Source of the DNA: a virus
Taxonomy: Duplodnaviria; Heunggongvirae; Uroviricota; Caudoviricetes
Reading direction: 5' to 3' (one strand)
IMG/VR virus record: IMGVR_UViG_2944808559_000001
Span: 23,109 to 87,108 of that record
Length of the DNA stretch: 64,000 nt
This document shows, piece after piece, positions 21,283 through 51,065 of this stretch (position 1 is the first letter of the stretch; each line of letters starts with the position of its first letter). Under the pieces are notes generated by a model. It ran no database searches. It was not told the origin of the DNA and saw only the letters and a program-made list of their open reading frames with translations. The position numbers and the translations under genes were made by a program.

Positions 21283-21287
21283 GCAAA

Positions 21288-21325: not shown

Positions 21326-21368
21326 TTAATTAGGGAACGGTTCGATCACACACTCATCGCCCACCCCC

Positions 21369-22598: not shown

Positions 22599-22976
22599 TC
22601 AGCCGCGTTCGGCGATCGCCCGCGTCAGGTTGGCGTCGGCTTCGGCGAGTACGCCGATCAGGCGCTTGATCTCGCGGCGGATCGCCACGCGCACAAGGTC
22701 GCTCGGCTCGGCACCAAAGCGCGTGTAGGTCGCCATCTGCAACGCGTGGAACGCGTCGTGCGCCTGCTGGATGTGGTCGCCGTACCAGCTCGGCTTTACC
22801 TCTCGCGTGATCATGAGGGCGACGCACACCACGTCAGTGGGCAGAACGATCAGGTCGCTGGCGTCGCCGATGTAGGCCTGCGGGATCTCTACGGGGACGC
22901 CAGCGCGCCCGAAGATCGTCAGTACACGGTCGGTCGCCAGATCGATCAGTTCGTTCGTGGTGGGCTTGGCGATCAT
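22599..22976 (-). CDS. hypothetical protein (125 aa)
   Basis: Preceded by the conserved 5'UTR tacccgaacggagcaacc and a GC hairpin. Confidence 0.5.
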   Translation of the reverse strand: MIAKPTTNELIDLATDRVLTIFGRAGVPVEIPQAYIGDASDLIVLPTDVVCVALMITREVKPSWYGDHIQQAHDAFHALQMATYTRFGAEPSDLVRVAIRREIKRLIGVLAEADANLTRAIAERG

Positions 22977-23038
22977 GGTTGCTCCGTTCGGGTAGGTGCC
23001 GCCCGCCGCTGGGGTCGGCGGCGGGCGGCGGCGGGGGG

Positions 23039-23440
23039 TTAGTTCTGGGCGTGCTTGCCGCGCGCGGCGACGGCGCGCATCATCTCGCGTGCCTGGTCTG
23101 CAGAGATCAGCCGCGCGCCCATGTTGCCCAGGCTGTCGAGTGCCTGCACGAGGGTCTTGATCACGAACATGTTGACGCGCGGCGCACCGGCGGCGGTGAT
23201 CACCTCACCGAACACCGCCCAGGCCGACACGCCGATGGCGCGGTCAACGGGGTTCATGACCGCGAACAGGCGCGCGTGGGCGCGCCCGACGTTCGTCTCT
23301 GCGCCCTCGGGCGTGGTGAGTGCGCCCAGGTGGTTGACGCCCATGTTCACGGGCGGGATGTCCAGGCCGGTGAGGACCTTGTTAAGGCTGTCGAGTGCGG
23401 CGCGTACGAGCGGCGCAACGTCGGGGCGTTCCTGCTCCAT
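23039..23440 (-). CDS. hypothetical protein (133 aa)
   Basis: Preceded by the conserved 5'UTR tacccgaacggagaaacgatc and a GC hairpin. Confidence 0.5.
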   Translation of the reverse strand: MEQERPDVAPLVRAALDSLNKVLTGLDIPPVNMGVNHLGALTTPEGAETNVGRAHARLFAVMNPVDRAIGVSAWAVFGEVITAAGAPRVNMFVIKTLVQALDSLGNMGARLISADQAREMMRAVAARGKHAQN

Positions 23441-23503
23441 GATCGTTTCTCCGTTCGGGTAGGGTGCCGCGCCCCCGGGGGCGCGGGGGCGCGGCGCGGG
23501 GGG

Positions 23504-24049
23504 TTACTTGCTAGCGGGCTTGCTAGCGGGCTTGGCGGCTGGCTTGGGGCTGTTGGCCGCCGTCCGGGCGGCGCTCAGCTCCTCCGTGAGTCGGGTGATC
23601 TCCGCCTGTAGGTCGGCGTTGATCCGCTCCAACTTGGCCGCGTGCTCACGGAGGTTCATCAGCTCCTCTGCCCGCTGGATCTCGGCGCGCATGTCGCGCA
23701 ACTTCTCGACGGTCGGCGCGGGGCTCTGCGCCAGCGGGTCGTTGTCCTTCAGGTCGCCCAGTGCGAGCTTGCCGATGGTGCTGCGGAAGATCTTCGCCTT
23801 ACCGCCGTCGCGGCGGTCGATGATGTCCGCCTCCATGCCCTCGGGGCAGGCGATCATGTCGTCGGCGTAGTCGGGCTGACCCTTGGCCAGAACGAACGTG
23901 CCAGCGATCACGTGCGACGCGATCACGGGGAGTCCGGCGCGGCGAACGTCCCGGTCCCACGAACCGCCCGAGCCGCTCTGCCGGGGGTCGGCGTCGATGG
24001 CGGCCAGGATCGCGTCCAGGATGGCGGTCGGCGAGAGCTTGAATTCCAC
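23504..24049 (-). CDS. hypothetical protein (181 aa) with a C-terminal coiled-coil and a KPAAKPASKPASK tail
   Basis: GTG start with RBS AGGAGA 4 nt upstream. Hairpin gggcgcgcccgc-aacg-ggcgggcgcgccc sits upstream. Confidence 0.5.
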   Translation of the reverse strand: MEFKLSPTAILDAILAAIDADPRQSGSGGSWDRDVRRAGLPVIASHVIAGTFVLAKGQPDYADDMIACPEGMEADIIDRRDGGKAKIFRSTIGKLALGDLKDNDPLAQSPAPTVEKLRDMRAEIQRAEELMNLREHAAKLERINADLQAEITRLTEELSAARTAANSPKPAAKPASKPASK

Positions 24050-24105
24050 GGTTTCTCCTGTTGAGAGGGGGCGCGCCCGCCCGTTGCGGGCGCGCCCAGG
24101 GGTGA

Positions 24106-24873
24106 CTAGTTGGGGATGGTTTCGGTCGGCGCGTCGCCGCTGGTCTGCGGCGCAACGCTGGGGGCGGTCTGGGCGCGTCGCTTGTTCGCCTTACGGGCGC
24201 GTCGCACGACGACGACCAAACCGATGATGATCGCCAGACCCAGCAGACCCACGCCGCCGCCCGCGACCACGAGCTGTACGGGCACGCCGGACGCGGACGC
24301 GGGGACGGTGGCGGGCTGACGCATTTCCGCTAGCTGGTTCGCTAGCGAGTTGAGCGCGCCCGCGATCGACGGGTCGGCGGCGACAGGGAAGGCAACCTCC
24401 GTGTCTTTCGCCTTGGGCTCCGCCGCTTCCGGGATGGGCACCGTGCCCAGCGGCGCGGGCACGTGAGCCTGCGGCGCGGACGCGGGCGGGACCGGGGGTG
24501 TGGGGGGTGTCGGGGGTGTCGGACCCGGCACCGTGACCCGCTCGGTGACCGTGGCGGTCGGACCCGGCACCGTCGCCTTTTCCGTGACGGTGGCGGTCGG
24601 ACCCGGCACCGTGGCGGTGGTGGTGGTGGTCGGCCCAGCCGCCGTGACAGTCGGCGGCGTGGCCGTCAGCGTGACGCTAGCCGTGATGGTGGTTGCCTCC
24701 CCAGGAACGGTGACCGTCTCGGTAACGGTCGCGGTGGAGCAGATGACGCCCGCCGGGCAGTCATCCATGGTCATGCCCGCGCTGGACGCGGGCGCTGTGA
24801 GGACGCAGAGAGCCAGCGCACCGGCGGCCGTGGCCGCTGCTGCACTGATCTTGCGTCGCGTGTTGAGTCTCAC
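24106..24873 (-). CDS. secreted, membrane-anchored repeat protein
   Basis: N-terminal signal peptide (AAAATAAGALALCVLTAPASSA), three 13-aa TVTE(K/R)ATVPGPTA repeats, a Pro/Thr-rich stretch, a C-terminal TM LLGLAIIIGLVVVV and a basic tail RRARKANKRRAQ. Confidence 0.6.
   Translation of the reverse strand: MRLNTRRKISAAAATAAGALALCVLTAPASSAGMTMDDCPAGVICSTATVTETVTVPGEATTITASVTLTATPPTVTAAGPTTTTTATVPGPTATVTEKATVPGPTATVTERVTVPGPTPPTPPTPPVPPASAPQAHVPAPLGTVPIPEAAEPKAKDTEVAFPVAADPSIAGALNSLANQLAEMRQPATVPASASGVPVQLVVAGGGVGLLGLAIIIGLVVVVRRARKANKRRAQTAPSVAPQTSGDAPTETIPN
24515..24635. repeat. three 39-bp tandem repeats (ggtcggacccggcaccgt core) encoding the TVTExATVPGPTA units
   Basis: Read directly. Confidence 0.6.
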
Positions 24874-25068
24874 ATCTGGGAATCGTGACCTGTAGAGAGT
24901 GCGTTACCGACTCTGAGGTAACGGAAATATAACAGTGCGTTTCTGCACGTCAGACCGTGTGCCCAGACCTGTAACGCACGTGACCCCCTCCCCCACGAGG
25001 GGACACCCCCGGATACGAGGTGACCCCCGCGCGGGTCGGGTCGCAGCGACGAGCACAGCACCGGGCGG

Positions 25069-25124
25069 CGTCAACCGGCGTTGACGAAGCCAGCCGGCCA
25101 ACTCACGTCAACCAAAGTTGACGT
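25069..25124. promoter_or_regulatory. two copies of the inverted-repeat operator-like site CGTCAAC-N4-GTTGACG (25069-25086 and 25105-25124), ~37 bp apart
   Basis: Read directly. Lies in a 550-bp non-coding region upstream of the small-gene trio. Confidence 0.45.
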
Positions 25125-25467
25125 CCGCTCGGGTTGTGGATCGGCGTTGTTGGATGGTGTGTCTAATTGGGTGCCGGGTTTGTCTGGTTTGTGTCTTCTG
25201 CTCTCGTGATCTTGGTGCGCTGTGGTCCACGCTGACAGCTTTTGATCTTGCTGTTGGTGGGATGACACCAGAAACCCCCTGTTCGCGTCTGTGGGGTGGT
25301 CTGTAGACGCGCGCAGGGGGTTCGGGGGGTTGGGTGTCGCTTGCGGTTTCGCTAGCGTCCACTGTGAATGGGACTTAGATGCACAACCAGTCAGCGACGA
25401 GGGGCGACGCTGAGCGCGGGCTGTGGTGGAAGTGTGGCGGGCTGGCGTGAGGCCGCGGGTTCTTCGG

Positions 25468-25656
25468 TTAGCGGCGGCGCTGGTGGTAGCGGGTCTTGAC
25501 GTGGGTGGCTCGGGGCCAGCGGATGGTGCGGAGCGCTCGGGCGAGGCGTCCGGTGAGGCGTCGCCAGTCGGTGTCGGTGAGGTGGCTGGCCTCGTCGACG
25601 ACGAACAGGACGGGGGTGAGGCCGCGGAAGCCGCGGGGCTCGGGGTCGAAGGTCAT
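25468..25656 (-). CDS. small protein (62 aa) with a C-terminal RWPRATHVKTRYHQRRR tail
   Basis: ATGA overlap with the upstream gene. C-terminus paralogous to the neighbour. Confidence 0.35.
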   Translation of the reverse strand: MTFDPEPRGFRGLTPVLFVVDEASHLTDTDWRRLTGRLARALRTIRWPRATHVKTRYHQRRR

Positions 25657-25904
25657 CGGCGTCTCCGGTGGTAGGTGGTCTTGATGCGGGTGGCTGCTGG
25701 CCAGTGGGTGTTGCGTTCGTCGCGGGCGAGCCGGTCGCGTTCCTTGAGGTAGGCGCGGCGCTGGGCTGGGGTGGGCTGGTGCCAGGCGTTGAGGATGCTG
25801 GCGAAGGCGCGGGCGGTGCCGCGGAGTGCTTTTCCGAGCTGTTCGAACGCTGGGGTGAACTGGGCGAGTGGGTTGACGCGGAGCTCGTCGGGGGCGTTGG
25901 TCAC
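25653..25904 (-). CDS. small protein (84 aa, GTG start) with a C-terminal HWPAATRIKTTYHRRRR tail
   Basis: GTGA overlap. Shares a ~50-bp DNA direct repeat with the next gene. Confidence 0.4.
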   Translation of the reverse strand: MTNAPDELRVNPLAQFTPAFEQLGKALRGTARAFASILNAWHQPTPAQRRAYLKERDRLARDERNTHWPAATRIKTTYHRRRR

Positions 25905-26125
25905 TGCTGCTCCTTGCGGGCGGCCTGGTCGCGTGCGGCGCGGCCGGCGGCGATGATCGGGTTGATCTTGCGGAGTGGGGGCCTCCATCCGTTGGCGTTG
26001 AGCCAGTCGGCGATGGCGGTGACGTCGTCCTCGAGGAGCGCGGCTTGGACGTGGGGTTGAAGGATGCCGCGTACGGCGTCACGCATGGTCTTCCAGGTGG
26101 CTTGGATGTCGGGGTCGGTGGCCAT
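25901..26125 (-). CDS. hypothetical small protein (74 aa)
   Basis: RBS GAAGGAGA sits 6 nt upstream of the ATG. Confidence 0.5.
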   Translation of the reverse strand: MATDPDIQATWKTMRDAVRGILQPHVQAALLEDDVTAIADWLNANGWRPPLRKINPIIAAGRAARDQAARKEQQ

Positions 26126-26264
26126 GGGTTCTCCTTCTCACTCGCGATATGGCTAGCGGGTTGTCCACAAGTTTGTCGGGCCTGTTTTGCCCCCTTCTAC
26201 CTGTAGGTGTGTGGACGGTCACCACAAGAAGAGGGTTTATGTAGGGGTGTTGTAAGAGGGTTGG

Positions 26265-26330
26265 GCCCGCCCGCGCGGGCGGGCAATTCAGGTGATTGCC
26301 CGCCCGCTGGGCCGTGAATGCCCGCCCGCT
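26265..26330. promoter_or_regulatory. GCCCGCCCGC iteron-like cluster: a 20-bp perfect palindrome GCCCGCCCGCGCGGGCGGGC plus two direct TGCCCGCCCGCT copies 21 bp apart
   Basis: Read directly. A fourth copy lies inside the upstream CDS 3' end at ~26404. Confidence 0.4.
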
Positions 26331-26396
26331 CGTCCGGTCATAGATGGGACATCACATGACCGCCGGTGGGGTTATCCACAGGCCCGCATGGTCGTG

Positions 26397-26783
26397 TTAC
26401 CCGGACGGGCGGGCGGGCAACTCGACCGACGCGGGCAGCTCCGGGATGCGGTAATCAGTCGCGCGACCCCGCACCGCGAACACCGGCGACCCGTCACGCC
26501 TCTTCCCGATCGGGACACGCACCTCGACCCCGTGCTCGGCCAGACGGCGCAGCACCTTCGTCAACCCGTCGACCGTCACCCCGGCCCGCATCGCGATCGT
26601 CTCCGTCGCCGTGATGGACGTGCCGTCGTCCCACTTGTCGATCGCATGCACCCGGAACCGGCGCGTGTCCTTCCACGTCCGCTCGGCGATGATCAGCAAC
26701 ACCAGCCGCTCGGCCGCCGTCAACTCCTTGGCCGCGGGCGTCGCCAGCCACGCCGCCACCTCGCCCACCAGGCGTGCGCTCAC
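26397..26783 (-). CDS. hypothetical protein, possible winged-helix DNA-binding (128 aa)
   Basis: GTG start with RBS GAGGGGG. Contains LTAAERLVLLIIAERTW...GLTKVLRRLAEHGVEV. Confidence 0.45.
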   Translation of the reverse strand: MSARLVGEVAAWLATPAAKELTAAERLVLLIIAERTWKDTRRFRVHAIDKWDDGTSITATETIAMRAGVTVDGLTKVLRRLAEHGVEVRVPIGKRRDGSPVFAVRGRATDYRIPELPASVELPARPSG

Positions 26784-26860
26784 CCAACCCCCTCAACGCG
26801 CTCGACGAACTGGCGCGCCCTGAGGGAAGAGCGTCACGCTGATCACCGTACGACCCGGGC

Positions 26861-27142
26861 CTATCCACGCAGAACCCTCCGCTCCCCCGCCTCATCGATC
26901 TCAGCCAGCAGCGACACCGAACAGGAATGCCCGGGGCCGTAGCCGTAGCACGGGGTGCAGAACACCTCGCCGACCGCCAGGTCCTCAACGTGGTGCTGGC
27001 AGACGGCGACGTCCTCCAGGTGCTCGTGCACGCAGCCCACCGTGGCGCGCATCACGACTTCGCTCCCGCACGCCCGCCACGACAGGTTCCCCTCGATCGT
27101 GCAGCCGGCCTCGGCCCGGCCCCCACTGCACGCCACGGTCAC
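26861..27142 (-). CDS. Cys/His-rich small protein (93 aa), paralog B
   Basis: GTGA overlap. Carries CVHEHLEDVAVCQHHVEDLAVGEVFCTPC, mirroring the neighbour. Confidence 0.45.
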   Translation of the reverse strand: MTVACSGGRAEAGCTIEGNLSWRACGSEVVMRATVGCVHEHLEDVAVCQHHVEDLAVGEVFCTPCYGYGPGHSCSVSLLAEIDEAGERRVLRG

Positions 27143-27444
27143 CGCTCCCCCGCGTCGCCTGCCGCCTCGTCCACCGCGGCGAACCCGACCAGATGACACT
27201 CGTGCCCGTCCTGCAGGCACGGATTGCACACCACCGTGCCGCGCTCGGCCGCGCCGAGGTGGACCGCACACAGACGACCCTCCCGCACGTGCCCGTGCAC
27301 GCACACCGCCACATACGCGGCCGGCATCTCGTCCGCGCACGGCGTCCACCCGGACCGGCGGCCCGGGACCGGCTTCGCTCCGCACGGCCCGGCGAGGGCG
27401 GCGCTTACGCTGGCTGTCTCGCTAGCGAGAATGGTCGCGGTCAC
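27139..27444 (-). CDS. Cys/His-rich small protein (101 aa), paralog A
   Basis: Contains CVHGHVREGRLCAVHLGAAERGTVVCNPC. ATGA overlap with the upstream gene. Confidence 0.45.
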   Translation of the reverse strand: MTATILASETASVSAALAGPCGAKPVPGRRSGWTPCADEMPAAYVAVCVHGHVREGRLCAVHLGAAERGTVVCNPCLQDGHECHLVGFAAVDEAAGDAGER

Positions 27445-28625
27445 AGGTCCGTCTCCTTCACTGCCTTGATGAACTGCTTGAACGGCTCCAGCTTCGCCAG
27501 CTCACCTTCGAGCCGCTGCTTCTCGCTCTCCAACGCGAGCATCCGCCGATGCAAGCTGTCGTTGGTCCGGTTGACGTCATCGACGGCGCTCTCGGCCTCG
27601 GCCAGGTGCTGCTGCAGCTCCGCCACCCGCCCCCGAAGGCCGGTAACCTCGCGCTCCAGCCCCTCGATCGTGGCGGCCGCCGTGCGACCCGCCTCCAACA
27701 GCTTCATCAGCTGCGCATACTCATCCGCAGGCGGCGGGACAGGCGGCGGGACAGGCGCCGCCGCCGGCCTGCTGGCGGCCGTGATCGTGCCGCCAGCCCA
27801 TGCCTCGCGTATCCACCAGATCGACGGGTTGCCGCGCTTCTGACACCGGATACGGCCCGTGTCACGCAGAAACCGGGACACCTCCTCCTGATAGGCGACG
27901 TCCCAGCCGTGGCCCGCCAGACGCAGCACCGACGTGAGGGTGCCCGTCCACAGAACCCCGTCAACGCGGGCGTTGGTCCCCTGCTCGTCGCCTTGCTCGG
28001 CGGCTGCCTCCCGCAGCAGGTCATACAGGGCCTTCGCGTCCTTGGCCAGGTCCTCCTTGCGAGCCCCCACATCGATGCGGGCGACGTCGCCGATCTTCGG
28101 CATTGACTCATCAGCTCCTTGCGGCGTTTCCGTTTCAGGGATGGGGTCGGCCCCACCTTCAGGGCCGGGGGTGGGGTGTTGGCCGTGGCGGGCGACCGCG
28201 CCGAGGAGGAACCGCATCACCTCGTCCTCGCGCCTGCGCAGCACATCCACCCACGACCGGTTGTCCATGTCGGCGTTGATGCGCAGCCGGTCCTGGTCGA
28301 TGTCGAACGTCACCCCGGACCGGTACGCCGCAGCGACCAGCTCCTGAATCTCCCAGTTGTCGCCCGGCTGCCGCTCCTGCTCGGGCGGGTCGGCGGTGAC
28401 GGCCGCCTGCATCGGGGCGCGCGTGGCGAGCTGCCGCACCTTGGACCGCGCGTTCAGCAGGTTGTCACCGTTGACCCTGTCCGGCACCGACTGCGAAAGG
28501 CCGGTGGCCGGGTTCGTGACCTTCCACTCGTTGCCGACCTTCTCCACCGTGAAACGGTGCCGCCTGGCCTCGCTGCGGATCATCTTCTCCACGTCGCTCC
28601 TGCGGCTCATGCGGGCCTCCCCCAC
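27441..28625 (-). CDS. hypothetical protein with a C-terminal coiled-coil (394 aa)
   Basis: ORF track. C-terminal heptad-like ELAKLEPF, LESEKQRLEGEL. Confidence 0.5.
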   Translation of the reverse strand: MGEARMSRRSDVEKMIRSEARRHRFTVEKVGNEWKVTNPATGLSQSVPDRVNGDNLLNARSKVRQLATRAPMQAAVTADPPEQERQPGDNWEIQELVAAAYRSGVTFDIDQDRLRINADMDNRSWVDVLRRREDEVMRFLLGAVARHGQHPTPGPEGGADPIPETETPQGADESMPKIGDVARIDVGARKEDLAKDAKALYDLLREAAAEQGDEQGTNARVDGVLWTGTLTSVLRLAGHGWDVAYQEEVSRFLRDTGRIRCQKRGNPSIWWIREAWAGGTITAASRPAAAPVPPPVPPPADEYAQLMKLLEAGRTAAATIEGLEREVTGLRGRVAELQQHLAEAESAVDDVNRTNDSLHRRMLALESEKQRLEGELAKLEPFKQFIKAVKETDL

Positions 28626-29167
28626 ACGGCCATGCCGACATGCCGGGCGAACGCGGCAGCCCCCGCGGACCCGGTCGACCCGTCGAACAGGTGCGCGAGC
28701 ATGCCGTACCGGCCGCCCCTCCCCTGCGTCAACCCGATCATGTAGCCGTTACGGGCCGGGCCGGCCGCCCTCGCTAGCTCTGGGACGTGCCACGGCGCGG
28801 GGTGGAGCTCCACCGTCACATCCGGCACCGCGGCCGCCCACTCGTAGGCGTAGCGGTCACCGCCGCCCGGCTTGCCCTTGGCCCGGTCGTAGCCGATGAG
28901 GAGGCGGAAGCTGCCGTACCGGTCGTACAGCTGGCCCAGGTCCTCGCGCACCTTCTGCCGGTCGGCGAGCCGCGACCCGGTGTAGACGATCGTCAGCAGA
29001 TCCGGCTCGCACCAGGAGTCCATCGCGGCGGCGAAGTTCGCCATGACGTGATTGACGATGACCTGGTCGATGGGGTAGCCGCCGAGGATCTCTTCGAGGA
29101 TCTCCTCGAAACGCCGCTTCTGTTCGGTGGTCAAGGTGGGCCTGCCTATCTGTGTTCGCCCGTTCAT
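28607..29167 (-). CDS. hypothetical protein (186 aa), possibly a SLOG/DUF2493-like nucleotide-binding fold
   Basis: IVYTGSRLADRQKV pattern. Low confidence on function. Confidence 0.45.
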   Translation of the reverse strand: MNGRTQIGRPTLTTEQKRRFEEILEEILGGYPIDQVIVNHVMANFAAAMDSWCEPDLLTIVYTGSRLADRQKVREDLGQLYDRYGSFRLLIGYDRAKGKPGGGDRYAYEWAAAVPDVTVELHPAPWHVPELARAAGPARNGYMIGLTQGRGGRYGMLAHLFDGSTGSAGAAAFARHVGMAVWGRPA

Positions 29168-29257
29168 CAGGTTCCTTCCGTTGTTGGCCAGCCTCGAGGA
29201 CGCTGGCGTTCAGGGGGTGGATCGCGTGAGGGCCCGGCCCCTGATCGGGCCGGGCCC

Positions 29258-29560
29258 TCACGGGCGGTTCTTCGGTGGGAGGCCGCGCCGTTTCCGGCGG
29301 GCGTCTTCGAGCCGACTCACGTTGTCCGGCAGCTGCTTCGGCACGCCCTTCGTGCAGGTGGCCACGTGCGGTGTGAAGATCTGCTCGAACAGCGCCTTCG
29401 GCCTGTCGGCGGTCGGCCGGCGCGACCTCCACACGCCGAGACCGTCGCGGGTGCACACCGTGTTACCGGACGGGTTCGGCTTCGGGTCGACCGCGAACGG
29501 GCGCCCGGATTCGGTGATGGTCCACAGGATCGGCTCCTTGCAGTCACCGCACTGGGACAG
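29258..29560 (-). CDS. hypothetical protein, C-terminal 100 aa clearly coding (GC3 ~90%) but with no in-frame ATG/GTG/TTG start
   Basis: LSQCGDCKEPILWTITESGRPFAVDPKPNPSGNTVCTRDGLGVW... The in-frame upstream region is a Pro/Thr/Ser tract with lower GC3. Confidence 0.4.
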   Translation of the reverse strand: MSQCGDCKEPILWTITESGRPFAVDPKPNPSGNTVCTRDGLGVWRSRRPTADRPKALFEQIFTPHVATCTKGVPKQLPDNVSRLEDARRKRRGLPPKNRP

Positions 29561-29561
29561 G

Positions 29562-29783
29562 TCACGCCGCGTGGGGGCCAGGGTCGTACCCCGCGGGCTG
29601 GCCGCCGTGGTGGAGGGAGCGGGCGGCGGCGATGTCGTCGGCGTCGACGCCCCACCCTTCGATGACGCAGAGGGTGTTGCCGGAGGCGTCGGTGACGCGG
29701 GTGATGGGGAGCCGGAGCCGGGCGCGCTTGTGGCGTCGCTGTCCGCGCTTGCGGTCGGGGCGCTCGTACTCGGGGATGAACAC
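29562..29783 (-). CDS. hypothetical small protein (73 aa)
   Basis: GTG start with strong RBS GAAGGAGA 6 nt upstream. GC3 ~93%. Confidence 0.45.
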   Translation of the reverse strand: MFIPEYERPDRKRGQRRHKRARLRLPITRVTDASGNTLCVIEGWGVDADDIAAARSLHHGGQPAGYDPGPHAA

Positions 29784-29964
29784 GTAACTTCTCCTTCGGT
29801 GTTGGGTGGGCAGTAGCAGCGCAGCGGCGCGCACTGGCCTGCAGGTGGTGAGGGCGGCGCGTGCGATTCGCAGCGCGGGCCCTGCGGGTAGGGGCGGGTG
29901 GGCGTCGCGCCGCACGGGCCGGGCCCCCAGGTGCAGGGCCCGAACAGCGGGGACGACGCCCGGG

Positions 29965-30474
29965 TCACTCGGCGCCGTCCAGCGCGAGTCCCGACCACAG
30001 TCGGATCACGGCGCCCGGGACGCGGAGCGCGTCGGGTTCGCCCGGCTGGCCGACGTACACCTTGGCCAGGTCGCGGTAACGGACCACGCGGGCGTCGTCC
30101 TTCCACACTCCGGCCTGCGTGAGAGCGTCCTCAGTGCTGCGCAGGAGCTTCGAGATGTCCGGCGCGCTGGCGGGAAGCCACCACAGGGTCTTCGACCAGC
30201 GGACGCCGGTCGGCCACCAGGTCGGGCGGCCGGACGGCTTGTCGCCCATGGTGAACACCATCTCGGCGATGATCGGGCCGTCCAGCCGCGTAAAGTCCTC
30301 GCCGGCGGCGATGCGGCGGTCGATCTCGTCCATCGCGGCCTGCCGCACGTCCTGCCGCCACGGCTTGACGGTCTTGGTCTGCTCGACCATCCGGCCCTTG
30401 CCGACATGCTTCTTCGAGCCCTGCGAGCCGGGCGTGCCGTACACGGTGATCGTGATGAGCGGGGGTGATGTCAC
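29965..30474 (-). CDS. rusA: RusA-family Holliday junction resolvase
   Basis: 169 aa. ITVYGTPGSQGSKK...WWPTGV... is typical RusA. Confidence 0.7.
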   Translation of the reverse strand: MTSPPLITITVYGTPGSQGSKKHVGKGRMVEQTKTVKPWRQDVRQAAMDEIDRRIAAGEDFTRLDGPIIAEMVFTMGDKPSGRPTWWPTGVRWSKTLWWLPASAPDISKLLRSTEDALTQAGVWKDDARVVRYRDLAKVYVGQPGEPDALRVPGAVIRLWSGLALDGAE

Positions 30475-30698
30475 TGCTGCCTCCTCAGGCGAGTGGGGAC
30501 CTCGATGACGAGCCCGCCGAGTGACGGGTCATCGTCGAGGTCGGGGTCATGGGTGGGGTCGGCGAGCCGCTCGATCGCGACGCGGTGCCGGTCGCGGCGC
30601 AGGTCGAGGGCGACGCTGGCCACGACGAGCAGGCCGGTCACGGTGACAAGCAGCCCGATCGCGGCGAAGAAGCCGACGATCACGTAGACGGCGATCAC
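30471..30698 (-). CDS. small membrane protein (75 aa, GTG start)
   Basis: VIAVYVIVGFFAAIGLLVTVTGLLVVASVAL. GTGA overlap with a further 43-aa TM ORF at ~30697-30828. Confidence 0.35.
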   Translation of the reverse strand: MIAVYVIVGFFAAIGLLVTVTGLLVVASVALDLRRDRHRVAIERLADPTHDPDLDDDPSLGGLVIEVPTRLRRQQ

Positions 30699-30822
30699 CG
30701 CTGGTTCTCGTTTCCGCGCGCCCACCAGCCGATGAACAGGCCGACGATGACGCCGGCGGCGCCCATCCCGGCGAGCAGCCACACGAGCTGCTCGACCGGG
30801 ACGGACACGACGGGGTGGTGCG

Positions 30823-31218
30823 TCATTGCGGGGCGACCGCCAGTTCGGCGAGACGGACGTTGTCCACGCGCAGGGCGTGGAGGTCGTGCTCGGCCTGCTC
30901 CAGCGCTTCCTGGGCGGCGCGCAACCGGCCCGGGTAGGAGCCGGTCTCCAGAGCCTGACCAGCGATGGCGCGGGCCGCGGACAGACCGGCGGACCAGTCG
31001 GCCAGGTCCACGATGTCGTTCAGCGCGTCACCGTAGGCGTCGGCCAAGGCCTTGGCGTTGTTCGCCTCGTCCTGGAGTTCGCCGAGTCGGTCCTGCAGGG
31101 CCCGGATGCGCTCGCTCGATCGCCTGTCGCGGGTGCGGAGGGCGAGTTTCCAGGTGATGAGGCAGGCCAGAGCGCCGAGGGCGACGCACACGGTGTAGGC
31201 GACGATCGCCGCCGCCAC
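30823..31218 (-). CDS. membrane-anchored coiled-coil protein (131 aa)
   Basis: N-terminal TM AAAIVAYTVCVALGALACLITW followed by a heptad-rich region. Confidence 0.5.
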   Translation of the reverse strand: MAAAIVAYTVCVALGALACLITWKLALRTRDRRSSERIRALQDRLGELQDEANNAKALADAYGDALNDIVDLADWSAGLSAARAIAGQALETGSYPGRLRAAQEALEQAEHDLHALRVDNVRLAELAVAPQ

Positions 31219-32057
31219 TAGTTACCGCCTCCCCGAGGGGTGACGTTGACCTGGCCGCCGTCGCTGACGATGACCTGGATGCGGCCGTCCTTGATTGCCT
31301 GCCACATGACCGCGCCGTCCTGGCCGAGCACGTCCACCAGGGCCTTGATGGCTTCCATCTCCGTGCGGGCCTTCTCGTTCTTCGCCTTCTGCGCGGTGTT
31401 CTCCTCCACCGCTTGCTGCGCGGCGGCGAGCGCGTCACGGACACCCTGCGGCGGCTGCGGCTGCTGCAGGGTGACGGAGAACCCGCCGAAGAATCCGGCG
31501 CCGCCCTGCTCCTTGATGAACTGGGCGGCGTACGTGGCGACCTGCTGCTCCCACTGCTGCTTGATCTGCGGGTTGGAGAACAGGTCCTTCCAGCCGTACT
31601 CCTTCGCCGCGGCGTCCATCGCCCGGTCGAGCGGCTGGCCGATGTAGATGCCGAGCAGCCGCGTCCAGCCGGCGTCCTCCCAGGCGCGGAACTTCAGGCC
31701 GAGCTGCTCGTGGAACCTCTGGAGGGTCTTGCAGTCCGTCGTCAGGCTGAACGTGGCGACGCCGGTCACGGTCATCTCCAGGTTGTCCTTGGACACGACG
31801 GTGAGCGGCCCGGACTCGGCGGTCTTCTTGTTGGCGAACTCGAAGGTGCGCTGCCCGGCGGGGTAGGTGTACCCCTGGTCGAACGGGCCGGAGGTGTCCT
31901 TGCTGCCGGGCTGGATGCAGTTCTGGAACGTGGTGTCGCTGATGGGCCCGGCGTCGTAGACGATGCCGACCTGGTCGGGCTCCGGCGTGGTGATGGAGCA
32001 GCCGGTGGCGAGCGCGGCGACGAGCAGGGCGCCAGCGGCGGCGGTGGTGCGGTTCAT
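31218..32057 (-). CDS. lipoprotein (279 aa)
   Basis: Internal ATG MNRTTAAAGALLVAALATGCS matches a lipobox LATGC. ATGA overlap with the upstream TM gene. Confidence 0.6.
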   Translation of the reverse strand: MNRTTAAAGALLVAALATGCSITTPEPDQVGIVYDAGPISDTTFQNCIQPGSKDTSGPFDQGYTYPAGQRTFEFANKKTAESGPLTVVSKDNLEMTVTGVATFSLTTDCKTLQRFHEQLGLKFRAWEDAGWTRLLGIYIGQPLDRAMDAAAKEYGWKDLFSNPQIKQQWEQQVATYAAQFIKEQGGAGFFGGFSVTLQQPQPPQGVRDALAAAQQAVEENTAQKAKNEKARTEMEAIKALVDVLGQDGAVMWQAIKDGRIQVIVSDGGQVNVTPRGGGN

Positions 32058-34260: not shown

Positions 34261-36015
34261 CTACTGCTGCGCCGTCCACGTGGCCTGGGCCGCCTTGATG
34301 GCGTCGTCCCAGGTCTTGGTGCGTCCGGCGCAGTCGCGGAGCAGCTCGGCGACGCCTTCGGCCTCGTCGGTGGTGAGGTCCTGCAGCGTCGTCACGCCCC
34401 GGTTGAACAGCCGGGAGAGGTCTGCCAGCTGGTCCTCCGGGCTGAGCCGCTCGTCGAGCTTGGCGAACAGGGCGGTGATGTCGTCGAGCGCCTTGGCGCG
34501 CTTCCTGGCCGCCGCTGAGGTGGGCTGGTGCTTCCCGGCGCGGAACTGGGTCAGGAAGGCGTTCAGCTCGTTGTTCGCGGCCTCGCGGTGGCCGACGTTC
34601 ATGGCCTTGCGGAACGCCCCGGCCAGCGTCTGCGGGGAGCCGCCCGCTCGAGCCCATTCGGCGCGGATCATCTCCGCGAGGTGCTCGCGCTCGATCCCGT
34701 ACTTGTCCGGCATGGGCGGGTTCGCAGGCGGCTCGGCCGGGGCAGCGTCGGGCGCGTCGAGGTGGTCGAGCACCAGGGCGACCTGGTCGAACGTGAGGTC
34801 CTTGCGGCTCTCGATCTTCTCGCCCAGAATGCGGCCGATCTCGGCGCGGACCGCGTCCGCGTCCGTGATGCCGCGGTCGGCGAGCAGCGCGTGCACCGCG
34901 TTCATCATGGCCTTGCTCGGCTTCCGCGCCTTGGCCGGCTGCTCCGGCGCGGCCATAGGCCGTTCGGGGGGGAAGACCTCGCCGTCGATGGTGGGCACCG
35001 GGATGTCGTTGAGCGCCTTGATCAGTTCGTCGGCCTGCTCCTCGGTGAGCTGGCGGGCCGACTTGCGCTCGCCGAACAGCTTCTCCACCAGGTCCAGCGC
35101 CGCGTCCTTGCTCATCTTGCGGTCGCGGACGAGCCGGGCGATCTCGCGGTCCTGGTCCCCGGTCAGCCCGCCCGTGGGGAACGTCTGGCGGATCGTGACG
35201 GATTCGCGGACGGGCCGCGTCGGATCCGCCGCTGCCTCGTCCTCGTCGGGCTCGTTGGGGTGGGTGGTCATCTCGACGGGGTTGGCGGCGGGGTCGAAGT
35301 CCGTCCGGACGCCCTCGTCCACGGACAGGGCGACCGCCATCTCAAGGGCGGTCGGGATGGATTTGACCAGCCGGGCGCGAATCATCGTCTTCCGGCCCAT
35401 TTCATCGAAGTGGTCCCGCCACGGGCCGACGATGCCGTCCTTGTTCTTGGCCATCGCGAACTTGTCGCGGTGGGCCTGCATCTCGGCCAGGCTCATCGGC
35501 TCGGTGAGGATGCGCTGGGTCCCGTGCGGGCCCTGGATGCTCGCCATCGCGTAGAACCCGATGGCCGGGCCGCGCGGGGTGCCCAGCGGCGGCATCTTGT
35601 GGGTGAGCAGGTCAGCGCCGAGGTCCATCTCGAACACGTCGCCCTGGCGGACGATGTTCGACTGGACCGCGACGACCCTGGGGTGCCGGTAGGCCAGGTC
35701 GGCGTACCCGCGATAGCCGACAATCAGGGTGGCGTCGGTGCGCTTCTCTCGCCAGTTCTTCATCGGCAGCAGCCACGCGTGGCCGAGGCCTGCGACGCCC
35801 GGCCGCAGCCCGAGCTGCGCGCACGTCATCAGGCCGCCCAGCACGGACGGGGCGTAGCACGTGGCCAGCGCCGGTGTGGCGCGCAGGCTGTTCAGCGCGT
35901 CCTGCTTGAGCTGGGCGACCGTCACCCCCTTGGGCAGCGCCGCCTCGAACTCGGCGGTGTGCTTGCCGATGCGGTCATTCATCTCCTCGATCAGCGCGGG
36001 CAGATTGTCGCTCAT
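34261..36015 (-). CDS. recT: RecT-family single-strand annealing protein with a ~300-aa C-terminal extension
   Basis: The N-terminal ~280 aa are RecT-like. Total 584 aa. ATGA overlap with the exonuclease. Confidence 0.75.
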   Translation of the reverse strand: MSDNLPALIEEMNDRIGKHTAEFEAALPKGVTVAQLKQDALNSLRATPALATCYAPSVLGGLMTCAQLGLRPGVAGLGHAWLLPMKNWREKRTDATLIVGYRGYADLAYRHPRVVAVQSNIVRQGDVFEMDLGADLLTHKMPPLGTPRGPAIGFYAMASIQGPHGTQRILTEPMSLAEMQAHRDKFAMAKNKDGIVGPWRDHFDEMGRKTMIRARLVKSIPTALEMAVALSVDEGVRTDFDPAANPVEMTTHPNEPDEDEAAADPTRPVRESVTIRQTFPTGGLTGDQDREIARLVRDRKMSKDAALDLVEKLFGERKSARQLTEEQADELIKALNDIPVPTIDGEVFPPERPMAAPEQPAKARKPSKAMMNAVHALLADRGITDADAVRAEIGRILGEKIESRKDLTFDQVALVLDHLDAPDAAPAEPPANPPMPDKYGIEREHLAEMIRAEWARAGGSPQTLAGAFRKAMNVGHREAANNELNAFLTQFRAGKHQPTSAAARKRAKALDDITALFAKLDERLSPEDQLADLSRLFNRGVTTLQDLTTDEAEGVAELLRDCAGRTKTWDDAIKAAQATWTAQQ

Positions 36016-36956
36016 GCGGCCTCCTCCGTGGTGTCGTCAGGAAGATCAGGCGGTGGCACCTGATCGAGCTTGTTGTCGGGCTTCACGTACGGCAGGCCCT
36101 TGCTGGAGAGCTGACGCAGCGCGTAGTCGTAGCCGCCGTGCATGGCGCGTCGTGCGGTGCCCATGAACGTGGCGACCTTGGACAGCGCCAGCAGCTTCCG
36201 GTCCTCGGCCGCGTCCATGCCGAGGACGGCCGCGCGCAGCTCGGCCGCCAGGTCGGCGGGCAGCTGCACCGTGGCCTCGGGGTCGATCTTCGGGTGCAGC
36301 TTGCGCACCGTGGCGTACGTGGCCGGGTGCTCGTCAAGCTCCGGCATCTCATCCCAGAACACCGACGCCAGGAAGTCCTCGGCCGCGTCGCGCAGGATTG
36401 CCGCCTCGGCGGGGTCGTACTCGATGACGTACTCGCGGAACGACAGACGGCCGTCGAGCAGGCCGAACCGCCAGCGCGGGACACCGAAGGTGTCCATGTA
36501 CCAGACGACCTGCACCCGGTAGTACAGCGGCACCTCGTCGGTGCCGGGGCGGCCCCATCCAGAGCCGTAGGCGTCGGCGTCGGTCTTGAACTCAGCGCCC
36601 TCGACCAGCACACCGTCCTCGAAGCACAGCGCGTCCGGGCTGGCCAGCTGGTAGTCCCGGTCGACGTGCACGTACGTGCCGCCGGAGCGGACCGTGAACT
36701 CCGGGTGCTGGTCGGCGAACCAGGCGCGGATGCCGGGCTCCAGGTAGTGGCCACGCATCTGCGCGGCGGTCGTCGGCTCCGGCTTGATGAGGCCCTTCTG
36801 CAGGCACCACTCCGAGTACGGCGACGCCCACGGCGACTTCCCGATCACCGCGGCCATCGACGACCCGCCGAGCCGGCCGCGGCGCTCCTTGCGTCCGCGG
36901 CGGCTGTCGGGGCGGAACCGGCCGAGGCGGCGGGCGGTCCCGACGGTCGCGGTCAT
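36012..36956 (-). CDS. YqaJ-like viral recombinase exonuclease (PD-(D/E)xK, lambda Exo-like)
   Basis: Internal ATG (MTATVGTARRL..). ILGKSPWASPYSEW...DALCFED...GAEFKTDADA motifs. 314 aa. Confidence 0.7.
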   Translation of the reverse strand: MTATVGTARRLGRFRPDSRRGRKERRGRLGGSSMAAVIGKSPWASPYSEWCLQKGLIKPEPTTAAQMRGHYLEPGIRAWFADQHPEFTVRSGGTYVHVDRDYQLASPDALCFEDGVLVEGAEFKTDADAYGSGWGRPGTDEVPLYYRVQVVWYMDTFGVPRWRFGLLDGRLSFREYVIEYDPAEAAILRDAAEDFLASVFWDEMPELDEHPATYATVRKLHPKIDPEATVQLPADLAAELRAAVLGMDAAEDRKLLALSKVATFMGTARRAMHGGYDYALRQLSSKGLPYVKPDNKLDQVPPPDLPDDTTEEAA

Positions 36957-37363
36957 CACGGCCGCTCCGGACGCTGCTTCGCCTGTTCGAGGCGGCGACT
37001 GCCGGGAGTCTTGAGGCGGAACGGCCCGCACAGCTGGTCTGCCGTCTGGAGTTCGTCGTTGACGAAGCCAGCGCCGGACTCGCAGGTGAGAGCGATGCCG
37101 TCCCCGTACTCCTCGGGCGTGTGGGCGAACCAGTCCTTGCCACTCGCGTCCGTCCAGATGTCGCCGCAGAGCGGCGGCCATTCGGCGGCGCGGACGAGCG
37201 TGTGCCTGACCGTGTCGTCGTCCGTCCGGAAGTAGGCGCTCGCGCCGCACCCATTGGGGTTGCCGATGCCATACCGGGCTGGATCGTTCGGGTCGACGTC
37301 GACGATCGTGCCCCGGCGGACGACCTCGACCAGGTCGCCCTTGCGGTACAGGGGTTCGCTCAC
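36956..37363 (-). CDS. hypothetical protein, tandem paralog (135 aa)
   Basis: MSEPLYRKGDLVEV..VDPNDPARYGIGNPNG...FRTDDDTVRHTLV.AAEWPPLCGDIW.D parallels the next gene. Confidence 0.5.
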   Translation of the reverse strand: MSEPLYRKGDLVEVVRRGTIVDVDPNDPARYGIGNPNGCGASAYFRTDDDTVRHTLVRAAEWPPLCGDIWTDASGKDWFAHTPEEYGDGIALTCESGAGFVNDELQTADQLCGPFRLKTPGSRRLEQAKQRPERP

Positions 37364-38304: not shown

Positions 38305-38802
38305 TCAGGCGGCAGTGCAGGTGCAGGGGCAGGAGCATGCGGTCGCCCGGGGCAGGACGAGCCGCTCGGCGAGGTAGTGCACGACGGCCCCGTACGGGAC
38401 GCGGTGGGAGCGGTTGTGCACCTTGAAGTACGGCAGGCGACCGTTCGCCACCAGCAGATTGGCAGTCCGGTGGCTGACGCCGAGGATCTTGCTGACGTCG
38501 GCGACGCGGATCAGGTCCAGCCGCATCAGCTCGTCGAGGGGGACGGGCACGCGGTCGCGCAGCTTCGCCAGGGTGGTGCGGTAGTCGGAGCCGATCGAGG
38601 CGGCCAGCGACTTGTATCCCTCGGGGGTGACGGTGAGGCGTCGGCCGCCGCTCGCGGCGGGCCCGAGGGTGACGAGCCGGGTGTCGGTGAGGGCCCGCAG
38701 CACGTCAGCGGGAATGTCCGGGTCGGTGTCGCGGACGTCGTCCGTGCTTGCTCTCCGCAGCACGCTGAGCGCTTTCGTAGCGCGTTCTCGCTGGTCTTCC
38801 AC
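38305..38802 (-). CDS. excisionase-family/MerR-like HTH DNA-binding protein, candidate Cro/Xis-like early regulator
   Basis: C-terminal LIRVADVSKILGVSHRTANLLVANGRLPYFKV. GTG start with purine-rich RBS GGGAGGGGG. First minus-strand gene leftward of the switch region. Confidence 0.55.
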   Translation of the reverse strand: MEDQRERATKALSVLRRASTDDVRDTDPDIPADVLRALTDTRLVTLGPAASGGRRLTVTPEGYKSLAASIGSDYRTTLAKLRDRVPVPLDELMRLDLIRVADVSKILGVSHRTANLLVANGRLPYFKVHNRSHRVPYGAVVHYLAERLVLPRATACSCPCTCTAA

Positions 38803-39065
38803 GGGTCCCCCTCCCCTCCCCTCACTCGCTAGTTGATCTTGTTTGGGATGGATCTTGCGCACGTGACGAACTTAGTGCGCATCGTGCGCTTCCGTCAACA
38901 TTTGTGCGCTCTGGAGACTACTGTCATTGCCTAAGAGAACGGGCGGAATGCTTGAGAGGCCAGCATTGACAGGAAGTTCCGTACCCAAACCGCAAGTCGG
39001 CTGCTACTGTGACGCCGAAGCGCAAAGTGCGCACCTAAGCGCCAGGTAGGAAAGGGGCAAGCCTC
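38803..39065. promoter_or_regulatory. immunity switch region with at least five TGCGCA(N) motifs (38856, 38876, 38885, 38905, 39028) and GCGCAAAGTGCGCA at 39020-39033, between the divergent Xis-like and XRE genes
   Basis: Read directly. AT-richer than the flanks. A TTGACA -35-like hexamer sits at ~38968. Confidence 0.5.
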
Positions 39066-39575
39066 GTGCGAACCACCGATACACGCAACGAAGCCGCGCT
39101 CACCGAACAGGGCGCGTTCTTCAAGGCCAAGCGCACCGAACGTCTCGACGCCATGACGCTGATCCAGGCGGCCGAACAGATCTCCCGGCTCTCGCCCCGC
39201 CAGCCGATCTCCAACAGCGGCATCTCCCACTGGGAAAGCGGCCGGCGACGCGTCGACGACCGCTTCGTCGTCATGATGGCGCTCGCCTACGGCAACATCG
39301 ACCCCGAGGAGCTCGAACAGCTCGGCCGCGGCAAGGCCGCCGAATGGCTGCGCAGGGAGCTGGCCGAACGCACCGCCGAACAGGCGCACGTCGCCGACGC
39401 GCACGTGGACATCGACGCGATCATCGCTCGCCTGCAGCGCCAGCTGTCGGAGATCAACGCGCTACCCCGCACCAGCCCCGAAGCTAAGAGACGCATGGCG
39501 GAGGCGCTGCTTCGGCACCACGAGAGCGTGGCCGACATGACCGACGCCCAGCTCGGCCTCGACACCGCCTCCTGA
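39066..39575 (+). CDS. XRE-family HTH transcriptional regulator, candidate phage repressor
   Basis: 169 aa. LTEQGAFFKAKRTERLDAMTLIQAAEQISRLSPRQPISNSGISHWESGRR is the HTH_XRE pattern. GTG start with RBS AGGAAAGGGG. Plus strand, divergent from the early genes. Confidence 0.65.
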   Translation: MRTTDTRNEAALTEQGAFFKAKRTERLDAMTLIQAAEQISRLSPRQPISNSGISHWESGRRRVDDRFVVMMALAYGNIDPEELEQLGRGKAAEWLRRELAERTAEQAHVADAHVDIDAIIARLQRQLSEINALPRTSPEAKRRMAEALLRHHESVADMTDAQLGLDTAS

Positions 39576-49891: not shown

Positions 49892-50176
49892 TCAGTCGGC
49901 GAAGAGGACGCGGCCGTCGAGGACCTCGACGGTGCCGTTGATCTCGGCGGCCAGGTCGTCGACCACGGCGCGGTTGGCGTCCCAGTAGGCGGCCTCGACG
50001 ACGAGGCAGAGGACGTGGCCGCCGTCCTTGTCGCGGATGGTGCAGGCGACGGCCTGGCGGACGTCGAGGACGACGCCGGTCCGGGCGCAGGTGATCTGCC
50101 TGCTGACCATCCACTGGAGGGCCATGCGGTTGGCGGCGGTGTCGGGGTCGAGGTGGCCGAGGATGACGGCCATGAC
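49892..50176 (-). CDS. hypothetical protein (~94 aa, GTG start)
   Basis: VNDVMAVILGHLDPDTAANRMALQWMVS... RBS GGAG. The upstream part of the track ORF is ignored. Confidence 0.4.
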   Translation of the reverse strand, partial: VMAVILGHLDPDTAANRMALQWMVSRQITCARTGVVLDVRQAVACTIRDKDGGHVLCLVVEAAYWDANRAVVDDLAAEINGTVEVLDGRVLFAD

Positions 50177-50543
50177 GTCGTTCACGTGCGGCTCCGTTCG
50201 GGTTCGGCTGGCGATTTCGCTAGCGAGTTTGGTGGTTCCGATCCCCTGCTGGGGTGGTGCGGGGGTCGGTGGGGTGTCCAGAGTCGCAGAGTCGCTGCAG
50301 ATTCGCAACGACTCGTGCGGGGGTCTGAGACGCTCCGAGAGCGCTTGGGGGAAGCATTCCGATCTCAACCCCTCCGGGAAGGGTGTTGAGCGCTTCAGGA
50401 GCGCTCTCAGACGCGCGGGGGACGATCACCCTGGACAGGGACACGCTAGCGCTCACGCAAGCCACGTTCGGTTGCGCAAAGTGCGCAATGCCAGAAGACT
50501 GGAGGCCCAACCTGGGCACCGACAGTGGAGGCGACCTCACCTC

Positions 50544-51065
50544 ATGGCCAGCACAAACAAGACGCGCGGCCGAGGTAAGGCTGTGCCCGAGGCGCAGTTC
50601 AGCGAACATGCGAGCCCAGCGCCGGCCACAGCTACGAAGACGAAACAGCCAGCAACTTCCCGCCGCATCGGCAAGCCGAAAACCATGTACGCGCTCAACG
50701 TGCGCATCCCCCGGGACATGGACGAGCGCCTCACCGCCGCCGTCGAGCGCACCGGCATGGGCCCCCAGGCCATCGCCAACGAGGCGATCAACGACCACGC
50801 CACAGCGGTCGGCGTCCCCGAGGACATCCCCGTCCCGGCCAAGGAAGACCGCCCGTTCCGCGAGCGCACCCCCAAGAAACGCCGCTACGGCACCGCCGAA
50901 GAAGAGCAAGACCGCCAGCTCGGGGTACGCGTCACGCCCCTCACCGACGCCCGCCTCACCGCGGCCTGCGACATCACCGGCAACGGGCCGCAGGACTTCG
51001 TGCGGACGGCGTTGAACGTCTGGCTGCACAAGCGGAAGATCCCCTTCAGCGCCCGCCAGGATTAG
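50544..51065 (+). CDS. tandem ribbon-helix-helix (CopG/Arc-like) DNA-binding protein
   Basis: Internal ATG MASTNKTRGRG. Two RHH-like units (MYALNVRIPRDMDERLTAAVERTGMGPQAIANEAI and LGVRVTPLTDARLTAACDITGNGPQDFVRTALNVWL). Upstream region carries TTGCGCAAAGTGCGCAA. Confidence 0.5.
   Translation: MASTNKTRGRGKAVPEAQFSEHASPAPATATKTKQPATSRRIGKPKTMYALNVRIPRDMDERLTAAVERTGMGPQAIANEAINDHATAVGVPEDIPVPAKEDRPFRERTPKKRRYGTAEEEQDRQLGVRVTPLTDARLTAACDITGNGPQDFVRTALNVWLHKRKIPFSARQD

Follow-up and report, generated by a model that had tools for sequence, protein, structure and literature searches.

Putative operators shared by the divergent switch and a distal ribbon-helix-helix gene of a Nonomuraea prophage

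We found that one palindromic doublet, GCGCA-N3-TGCGC, occurs at three places in a Nonomuraea prophage: twice between two divergent DNA-binding genes (O_L and O_R) and once (O_D) ahead of a tandem ribbon-helix-helix (RHH) gene. We see an even chance that these three sites are the operators of a temperate-phage genetic switch and that one phage regulator, most likely an XRE-like dimer, reads all of them. That the palindromes are putative operators is supported by their enrichment, their place at predicted promoter positions and their clean phylogenetic footprint.

The window, that is, the whole 64-kb stretch of DNA that was analysed, has a GC content of 0.69 and carries nearly all of its genes on the minus strand. 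The element is a prophage, as its capsid, portal, terminase, integrase and RecE/RecT genes show: genes for a major head protein, a minor head protein, a portal and a terminase lie at 4-14 kb, a tyrosine integrase gene at 20236-21282, a RecT-like gene at 34261-36015 and a RecE/YqaJ-like gene at 36012-37250. Synteny across four Nonomuraea genomes supports membership in the prophage, and a Nonomuraea maritima protein (NCBI; 318-kb contig) matches the 169-aa XRE-like protein at 100% identity. Megablast against sequenced phages returned no close relative, just RecT matches of ~84 bp, and megablast against plasmids returned no match. Likewise, nothing was found among IMG/VR contigs with the XRE and RHH proteins and profiles as queries, or in metagenomes with the RHH profile, and the window contained no Rfam match and no tRNA. 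The integrase gene sits mid-element, between terminase and early genes. It belongs, with a low-GC patch at 21-22 kb, to a segment of ~14 kb (18400-32000) that is extra relative to the Actinomadura parvosata element (L007, 3284-6849), in which the genes flanking this segment are only ~3.5 kb apart. Elsewhere in the window, a CxxCxxCC-domain protein (55237-56934) has 565 aa, and its homologues in the related loci L009 and L012 have just 163-164 aa; its Hint and LAGLIDADG matches suggest an intein insertion.

Two divergent DNA-binding genes flank the 263-bp regulatory spacer (38803-39065) of the switch. On the minus strand, the HTH_17 gene (38305-38802, 165 aa) is the first of a leftward operon that continues with the RecE/YqaJ and RecT genes. 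Its C-terminal HTH_17 domain (excisionase/MerR-type; residues 98-147) matches PF12728 at 34.9 bits against a cutoff of 27; the match to TIGR01764 ('excise') is sub-threshold (22.1 versus 28.8), and an excisionase function is therefore not implied. On the plus strand lies the XRE-like helix-turn-helix gene, the candidate repressor (39066-39575, 169 aa). Its product has two Pfam matches, both sub-threshold (HTH_31 at 22.4 bits, cutoff 27; HTH_3 at 20.2 bits, cutoff 23), no NCBIfam match and no HTH match in a PDB sequence search, and its AlphaFold2 model (pLDDT 58) was too poor for a structure search. The family comprises 17 cluster representatives in 1.84 billion proteins. Its alignment shows an S..T...IE.G pattern with an insertion in the turn; 4 of 15 representatives match HTH_3 and 8 of 15 match HTH_31 (best E-value 1.2e-6), so that the assignment as XRE-like holds at the level of the family. 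A first-pass annotation of this DNA had described the pair as divergent Xis/Cro-like and XRE repressor genes: the genes are indeed divergent and DNA-binding, and HTH_17 scores above its cutoff, but the XRE Pfam scores fall below theirs. The gene starts that it had assigned, 38802 and 39066, agree with the positions of ribosome binding sites, with public calls in related genomes and with the identical NCBI protein.

The informative sequence unit is the doublet GCGCA-N3-TGCGC, not the lone hexamer or the 14-mer. The hexamer TGCGCA lies at 38856, 38876 and 39028 and TGCGCT at 38885 and 38905, and the 14-mer GCGCAAAGTGCGCA at 39020-39033 occurs again at 50474-50487 inside TTGCGCAAAGTGCGCAA. The first-pass annotation had every one of these coordinates right; it did not list AGCGCA at 39019, which makes six hexamers, or the degenerate AGCGCC at 39038-39043, a third GCGC hexamer 10 bp after the second. 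Across the window TGCGCA is not enriched (27 copies versus 29.4 expected), and we rejected window-wide hexamer enrichment: enrichment is confined to the local cluster and the doublet. Six members of the strand-symmetric family TGCGCA/TGCGCT/AGCGCA fall in the 263-bp spacer, where ~0.4 are expected; this is the maximum among all windows of that size in the 64 kb. None of 5000 region shuffles reached six; thus the shuffle comparison on which the original claim of enrichment had been staked came out in favour of the local cluster. Recurrence of a spacer 14-mer elsewhere in the window has a chance probability of ~0.08 and, for that reason, is weak evidence when taken alone. The exact doublet is found three times in 64 kb (38877, 39020 and 50474) versus 0.31 expected, with 0 of 300 simulations yielding at least three copies. 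All three fall within two divergent intergenic regions: a window-wide scan of the kind that had been proposed located the doublet twice in the switch spacer, once at the distal site and nowhere else. Variants with one mismatch number 14 versus 12 expected, and we rejected one- and two-mismatch variants as extra sites, their frequency being at chance level. The conservation of a doublet variant at 50692-50706 is uninformative because it lies within the RHH coding sequence for ALNVRI. The exact 18-mer was present in 115 metagenome contigs, none of them with related flanks; in one metagenome, for example, the flanks were GCAAAG repeats.

Within the switch spacer, O_L (GTGCGCAtcgTGCGCTTC) occupies 38875-38892, with its core TGCGCA-N3-TGCGCT at 38876-38890, and O_R (GAAGCGCAaagTGCGCAC) occupies 39017-39034, with its core at 39019-39033; neither is assigned to a strand. 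Inverted-repeat analysis showed that the two are inverted copies of an asymmetric 18-mer, AAGCGCA-N3-TGCGCAC, mirrored across the spacer. Read along the minus strand, the order is TTGACG, GAAGCGCACGATGCGCAC, TAAGTT: O_L is exactly the 18-nt spacer between the -35 (38898-38893) and the -10 (38874-38869) of a predicted leftward early promoter, P_L (38869-38898), whose -10 appears to be of the actinobacterial type (TAnnnT). On the plus strand, we predict an extended -10 promoter, P_R (TGc-TACTGT, 39002-39010); O_R starts 6 nt past this element and covers ~+1 to +18. Both promoters are predictions from sequence and conservation. A stricter E. coli-type scan called no promoters. The sites are repeated, enriched and footprinted; their overlap with promoters is our own reading.

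To obtain a comparative footprint, we fetched the DNA encoding the XRE protein's only seven close homologues among 5.8 billion proteins: Nonomuraea sp. NPDC005650 (L001), N. wenchangensis (L002), Nonomuraea sp. CA-141351 (L003), two JGI contigs (L004 and L005), a Logan contig (L006) and A. parvosata (L007/L008), whose homologue is 36% identical. In seven aligned loci, O_R was invariant apart from a change of its centre from aag to agg in L001, and the O_L half-sites were unchanged save for one base in L006 (TGCGTT). The N3 spacer of O_L, by comparison, took seven forms in the seven loci (tcg, gta, ttg, ccg, ctg, acg and ccc). Invariant columns make up 55% of the aligned spacer region overall, and the central ~70 bp are poorly conserved. 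O_L and O_R lie 143-144 bp apart in each of the seven loci, single-base indels compensating one another. The predicted promoters were also retained: in P_L the -35 is invariant and the -10 reads TA[A/G]G[T/G]T, and the P_R element is kept as CTGCTA[C/A]TGT, with TGaTACGGT in L007. The strict motif occurred just at the O_L and O_R places in ~54 kb of XRE-locus relatives, and in ~100 kb of related prophage DNA in total the exact motif was found only at orthologous places.

The remaining hexamers of the spacer behaved differently from one another. The outer lone TGCGCA (38856-38861), 20 bp from O_L and near the predicted P_L start, is invariant in 7 of 7 loci. The TGCGCT at 38905-38910 reads TATGCT, TGCGAT, TACGAC and TGCGTT in relatives and is probably non-functional; of the proposal that five hexamers form an operator set, the positions and the cluster thus stand, and the member at 38905 probably drops out. 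AGCGCC at 39038-39043 is invariant in the seven-spacer alignment, a conservation that is ambiguous because the hexamer overlaps the 5' leader and RBS region. We also considered whether the operators could act as RNA hairpins and rejected this: their arms are invariant without compensatory changes, a pattern that favours sequence-specific recognition of DNA over an RNA structure, and O_L sits in a promoter spacer. Separately, an invariant direct repeat, GATCTTG-N9-GATCTTG (38835-38857), lies in what we predict to be the leader of the HTH_17 gene; neither copy varies among seven loci, A. parvosata retains one, and the repeat is a candidate site for the HTH_17 (excisionase-type) protein.

The switch region of A. 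parvosata (L007, 9753-10000) has the same P_L architecture (TTGACG, 17 nt, TAGCGT), with a different palindrome, GGGGTCCGTGTAACCCC, in the P_L spacer; further repeats there are ATTCACAC, present twice, and ACACAAG/CTTGTGT. At the O_R position A. parvosata carries the related TGCGCAAAAAGCGCA, so that P_R retains a GCGC-N5-GCGC site. From its sequence, this region looks like a partial swap of operator specificity.

The distal site lies ahead of a 173-aa gene (50544-51065, plus strand) whose product is a tandem RHH protein by its AlphaFold2 model. The model has two beta-alpha-alpha units (E49-56/H57-70/H74-89 and E123-130/H132-145/H149-163), with pLDDT values of 83-93 in the folded parts and a mean of 66. 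Its best Foldseek matches were F-plasmid relaxosome chains (E-value 1e-3, probability 1.0), which we take to be TraY, a known single-chain tandem RHH protein; DndE, VirC2 and AvtR matched much more weakly (E = 0.4-4). The protein has no Pfam match, and a RelB-like NCBIfam match reaches 22 bits against a cutoff of 50. Model, structural matches and this weak RelB-like similarity together bear out the label 'tandem RHH' that the gene had been given from its sequence. A small divergent gene (49892-50173, minus strand, 93-97 aa), the first of a leftward gene run toward the XRE gene, adjoins the RHH gene in every locus covering that side, including an isolated module in Nonomuraea sp. 3N208.

O_D (TTGCGCAaagTGCGCAA, 50472-50488, no strand assigned) is a perfect 17-bp palindrome, TTGCGCA-aag-TGCGCAA, 56 bp upstream of the RHH start codon. 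Using homologues of the RHH gene and of its small divergent neighbour, we found further distal loci (L009-L015): L009 is the same prophage as L001, L010 is from Nonomuraea sp. 3N208, L011 is from the same JGI sample as L005, L012 and L013 are from N. aridisoli, L014 is from N. wenchangensis and L015 is from Nonomuraea sp. CA-141351. We found that GTTGCGCAAAGTGCGCAA was unchanged in all seven of these other loci carrying O_D. The 32-nt block that contains the site varies at a single position and is the longest conserved stretch in a 370-bp spacer that is variable elsewhere; synteny places O_D and the switch in the same prophage in four genomes. Because it is invariant in these loci and syntenic with the switch, O_D is real and under constraint. 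Moreover, O_R and O_D share 14 of 14 contiguous bases, the AAG centre included; with both sites conserved, this makes an independent origin very unlikely. It had been proposed that a distal operator controls a second lysogeny-phase gene. The site itself survives this analysis, invariant upstream of the tandem-RHH gene in the same conserved prophage; the control of a lysogeny-phase gene did not emerge as firmly, and it is the strand of the RHH gene that suggests such a phase. O_D more likely serves the RHH gene than the leftward run, because that run (from 50173) has its own motif at 50207-50224, ~250 bp from O_D. A candidate RHH promoter, TTGCGC-N17-AAGACT (50472-50500), is covered by O_D and invariant in all loci; its assignment from sequence is speculative.

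Three further features of the distal region deserve mention. Its GC content of 0.649 is lower than that of the window (0.688), but only modestly for a region that had been called low-GC; the switch spacer, by comparison, is at 0.574. The dyad symmetry reported at 50316-50424 exists (MFE z = -2.8), as a dyad or long hairpin of ~90 nt (50321-50413) that separates the small gene from the RHH gene. Covariation lends it almost no support: seven sequences contain one compensatory pair and the covariation term is unfavourable whichever strand is read, so we rejected its RNA-structure reading. Changes of the G-U type fit the plus strand slightly better. Finally, Nonomuraea sp. 3N208 carries a lone 1.15-kb module (L010, 9327-10486) consisting of the small gene, the spacer with O_D and GCTAGC sites, and the RHH gene. 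The module sits in non-phage DNA, flanked by genes for an NB-ARC/TPR regulator and a dnaE-like polymerase, with a phage-type integrase ~7 kb away, and is either an autonomous two-gene module or a prophage remnant.

If an XRE-like dimer reads the three sites, then at O_L, between -35 and -10, it would shut off the HTH_17/RecE/RecT operon and lysogeny would be maintained. At O_R, around +1 of its own extended -10 promoter, the regulator would limit its own synthesis, and from O_D, which is the best palindrome, it would govern the promoter that drives the opposite-strand tandem-RHH gene, at a distance of 11.4 kb. That O_L and O_R stay 143-144 bp apart may mean that bound dimers touch, or at least keep phase. 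We infer both the direction of regulation and the identity of the binder. With moderate confidence, we favour the XRE protein as the reader: it occupies the classical repressor position, the dyad has the geometry expected of an HTH dimer, and the protein would otherwise lack an obvious operator of its own. As to geometry, seven-bp arms and a 3-bp centre form a 17-bp dyad with half-site centres 10 bp apart, and this is the geometry of lambda/434-type HTH dimers. Co-occurrence does not discriminate between the XRE and RHH proteins: in each of the four prophages from which we fetched both regions, the XRE gene is present together with O_L and O_R, and so is the RHH gene with O_D. Several observations stand against the XRE protein. 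Its own Pfam scores are sub-threshold and its model is poor, and individually palindromic hexamers repeated at 9 bp would suit tandem RHH units as well. In the 3N208 module, the RHH gene keeps an intact O_D in non-phage DNA, and a homologue search retrieved no XRE homologue from that genome; this is a weak hint that another protein, for example the RHH protein itself, may read O_D, weak because a 17-bp site survives by chance in ~14% of cases at that divergence, by a by-eye estimate. In A. parvosata, the homologue, at 36% identity, has a changed recognition helix, and the palindrome in P_L is another one. With at least three motif classes and at least four DNA-binding proteins in play, the XRE assignment is provisional. 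The proposal of phage immunity operators with an added distal operator therefore holds for the sites, their enrichment and their conservation, and not, as an established fact, for the XRE protein as their reader. As for host regulators, the ClgR core is presumably CGC-N5-GCG, with flanks that differ from the switch sites, and to our knowledge the motifs of LexA, BldD and other host regulators do not match them. A literature search for a TGCGCA operator found nothing relevant.

It is possible, though we hold this only tentatively, that the binder is instead the tandem RHH protein (50544-51065), each single-chain pseudo-dimer occupying one hexamer and two of them each 9-bp doublet; the protein would then autoregulate at O_D and also set both switch promoters 11 kb off, as a remote second immunity locus. 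Autoregulation is classic for RHH proteins, and the best site precedes the RHH start codon by 56 bp. Each TGCGCA hexamer is itself palindromic and repeated in tandem at 9 bp; MetJ and Arc operators consist of palindromic units in tandem. The model offers two beta-alpha-alpha units with an Arg on each strand, and strand 1, LNVRIPRD, in our view resembles Arc FNLRWPRE. Furthermore, the module with O_D persists in 3N208 without the XRE gene, and the lone conserved hexamer at 38856 fits one-unit-per-hexamer binding better. Under such an assignment, however, the divergent promoter region of the XRE gene would hold no obvious operator for the XRE protein itself, which would be unusual, and A. parvosata keeps the P_R GCGC site although the homologue search gave no RHH protein there. 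The identity of the protein also rests on a model with a mean pLDDT of 66 and a Foldseek E-value of 1e-3, and its top structural relatives are relaxosome accessory proteins, not repressors.

It is distinctly unlikely, in our estimation, that the HTH_17 protein (38305-38802) reads these same operators in the manner of Cro, alone or in competition with the XRE protein, and would switch off the XRE and RHH promoters in lytic growth. Cro and CI share operators in lambda-type switches, the HTH_17 gene is the first of the leftward operon and divergent from the XRE gene, and it would make sense for one early protein to repress two opposite-strand genes; however, HTH_17/excisionase-type proteins more often bind direct repeats, and the GATCTTG repeat in the gene's own leader is a better candidate site. 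Very unlikely is a coincidental or relic distal match, with O_L and O_R as switch operators and O_D as an unrelated palindrome (for another factor or an RNA hairpin): the 14-mer recurs at p ~0.08, the 115 unrelated metagenome contigs mean that the 18-mer is not intrinsically rare, and any palindrome can fold as RNA, but O_D is invariant in 7 of 7 other loci within the longest conserved block of a variable spacer, two independently conserved sites agreeing at 14 of 14 bases with the AAG centre is far below chance, and the arms lack compensatory changes.

The arrangement of sites can be compared with known immunity systems, and by analogy the proposed switch logic matches that of lambda-type switches and of actinophage repressors that bind several regulatory regions. 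In the immC regions of lambda, 434 and P22, divergent CI and Cro promoters carry repeated 17-bp operators of two-fold symmetry, O_R and O_L. The prophage resembles them in its divergent repressor and early promoters, in repeated 17-bp symmetric sites over predicted promoters, in the reuse of the operator at a second, distant promoter and in a fixed distance that could allow a loop. It differs in having one or two full sites per promoter instead of three graded ones, a GC-rich operator, and a candidate repressor that belongs to a very rare family (17 clusters) and lacks a detectable S24 peptidase domain; in addition, its remote site precedes an opposite-strand RHH gene, not an early lytic operon. 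In the immI region of P22, the RHH repressors Mnt and Arc are remote from immC and have operators of their own, and the immC operators are not shared. Like immI, the RHH gene here is divergent from a leftward run, several kb from the primary switch of a temperate phage. Unlike immI, O_D shares its operator sequence with the switch, and the RHH protein is a single-chain tandem, more like TraY/AvtR; no antirepressor was identified here.

Among actinophages, the gp33 repressor of mycobacteriophage BPs is described as binding five regions and regulating four promoters (PMC4557955). Immunity in BPs depends on integration, attP lying within the repressor gene, and the phage uses a 12-bp palindrome together with a variable half-site (PMC4557955). 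As far as that account describes BPs, the two systems share a palindrome-based operator in the repressor/early spacer together with further regulatory regions; the prophage has neither attP in the repressor gene, its integrase gene being 18 kb off, nor a 12-bp palindrome with a half-site (PMC4557955). The stoperators of cluster A mycobacteriophages (L5/Bxb1) are numerous, asymmetric and bound by monomers (PMC9283540, PMC6550527). Sites spread across the prophage beyond the main operator are common to both, but the TGCGCA-type site is symmetric and present in three copies (PMC9283540, PMC6550527). Stoperators come as tens of asymmetric sites oriented with transcription, and the TGCGCA-type sites do not; with just three symmetric sites, this is not a stoperator system.

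A closer formal analogue of stoperators in this DNA is a second, dispersed motif, GCTAGC-N6-GCTAGC, with ~16 copies and an orientation bias. The hexamer GCTAGC occurs 28 times in the window against 10.3 expected, a count that no shuffle reaches, and the doublet, with up to two mismatches allowed, has 22 copies where 3.0 are expected, a number reached in 0 of 100 shuffles. The ~16 sites, of 18 bp each, begin at 1179, 3916, 8550, 23510, 24329, 25339, 26140, 27409, 33502, 38234, 44637, 50207, 50445, 57312, 61476 and 62567. On the minus strand the extended motif reads CTCGCTAGCGAAAyCGCnAGC. Most copies precede a minus-strand start codon by 12-40 nt and have their perfect hexamer upstream; two are in the distal spacer, and a degenerate copy is in the HTH_17 leader. 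The motif is kept at orthologous positions in related prophages and is missing from the non-phage part of L010; its role could be that of a stoperator-like or a start-associated regulatory site. A perfect GC-rich stem-loop built from two GCTAGC hexamers (CAGCCGCCCCGCTAGCcgaacgGCTAGCGGGGCGGCTG, 3904-3945) lies just downstream of the major capsid gene and is probably a terminator. We consider it rather unlikely that the RHH protein reads the three GCGCA-N3-TGCGC doublets in a bipartite immunity with shared operators and that, in parallel, the ~16 GCTAGC-N6-GCTAGC sites would serve genome-wide silencing by another regulator.

Together, these results provide a testable map of a lysogeny switch for a group of Nonomuraea prophages, with three putative operators, two predicted promoters and three candidate regulators. 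The arrangement looks like an ordinary phage repressor-operator circuit, and since standard repressor-operator logic is repeated here, its general interest is modest. If the RHH protein does read the sites, a remote locus would set both promoters of the primary switch directly, with operators shared by two loci. The prophages mapped here are without a close sequenced phage relative, and their candidate repressor comes from a very rare family. Nonomuraea is an antibiotic producer and genetically difficult; for this reason, a defined repressor-operator pair and its promoters could become genetic tools.
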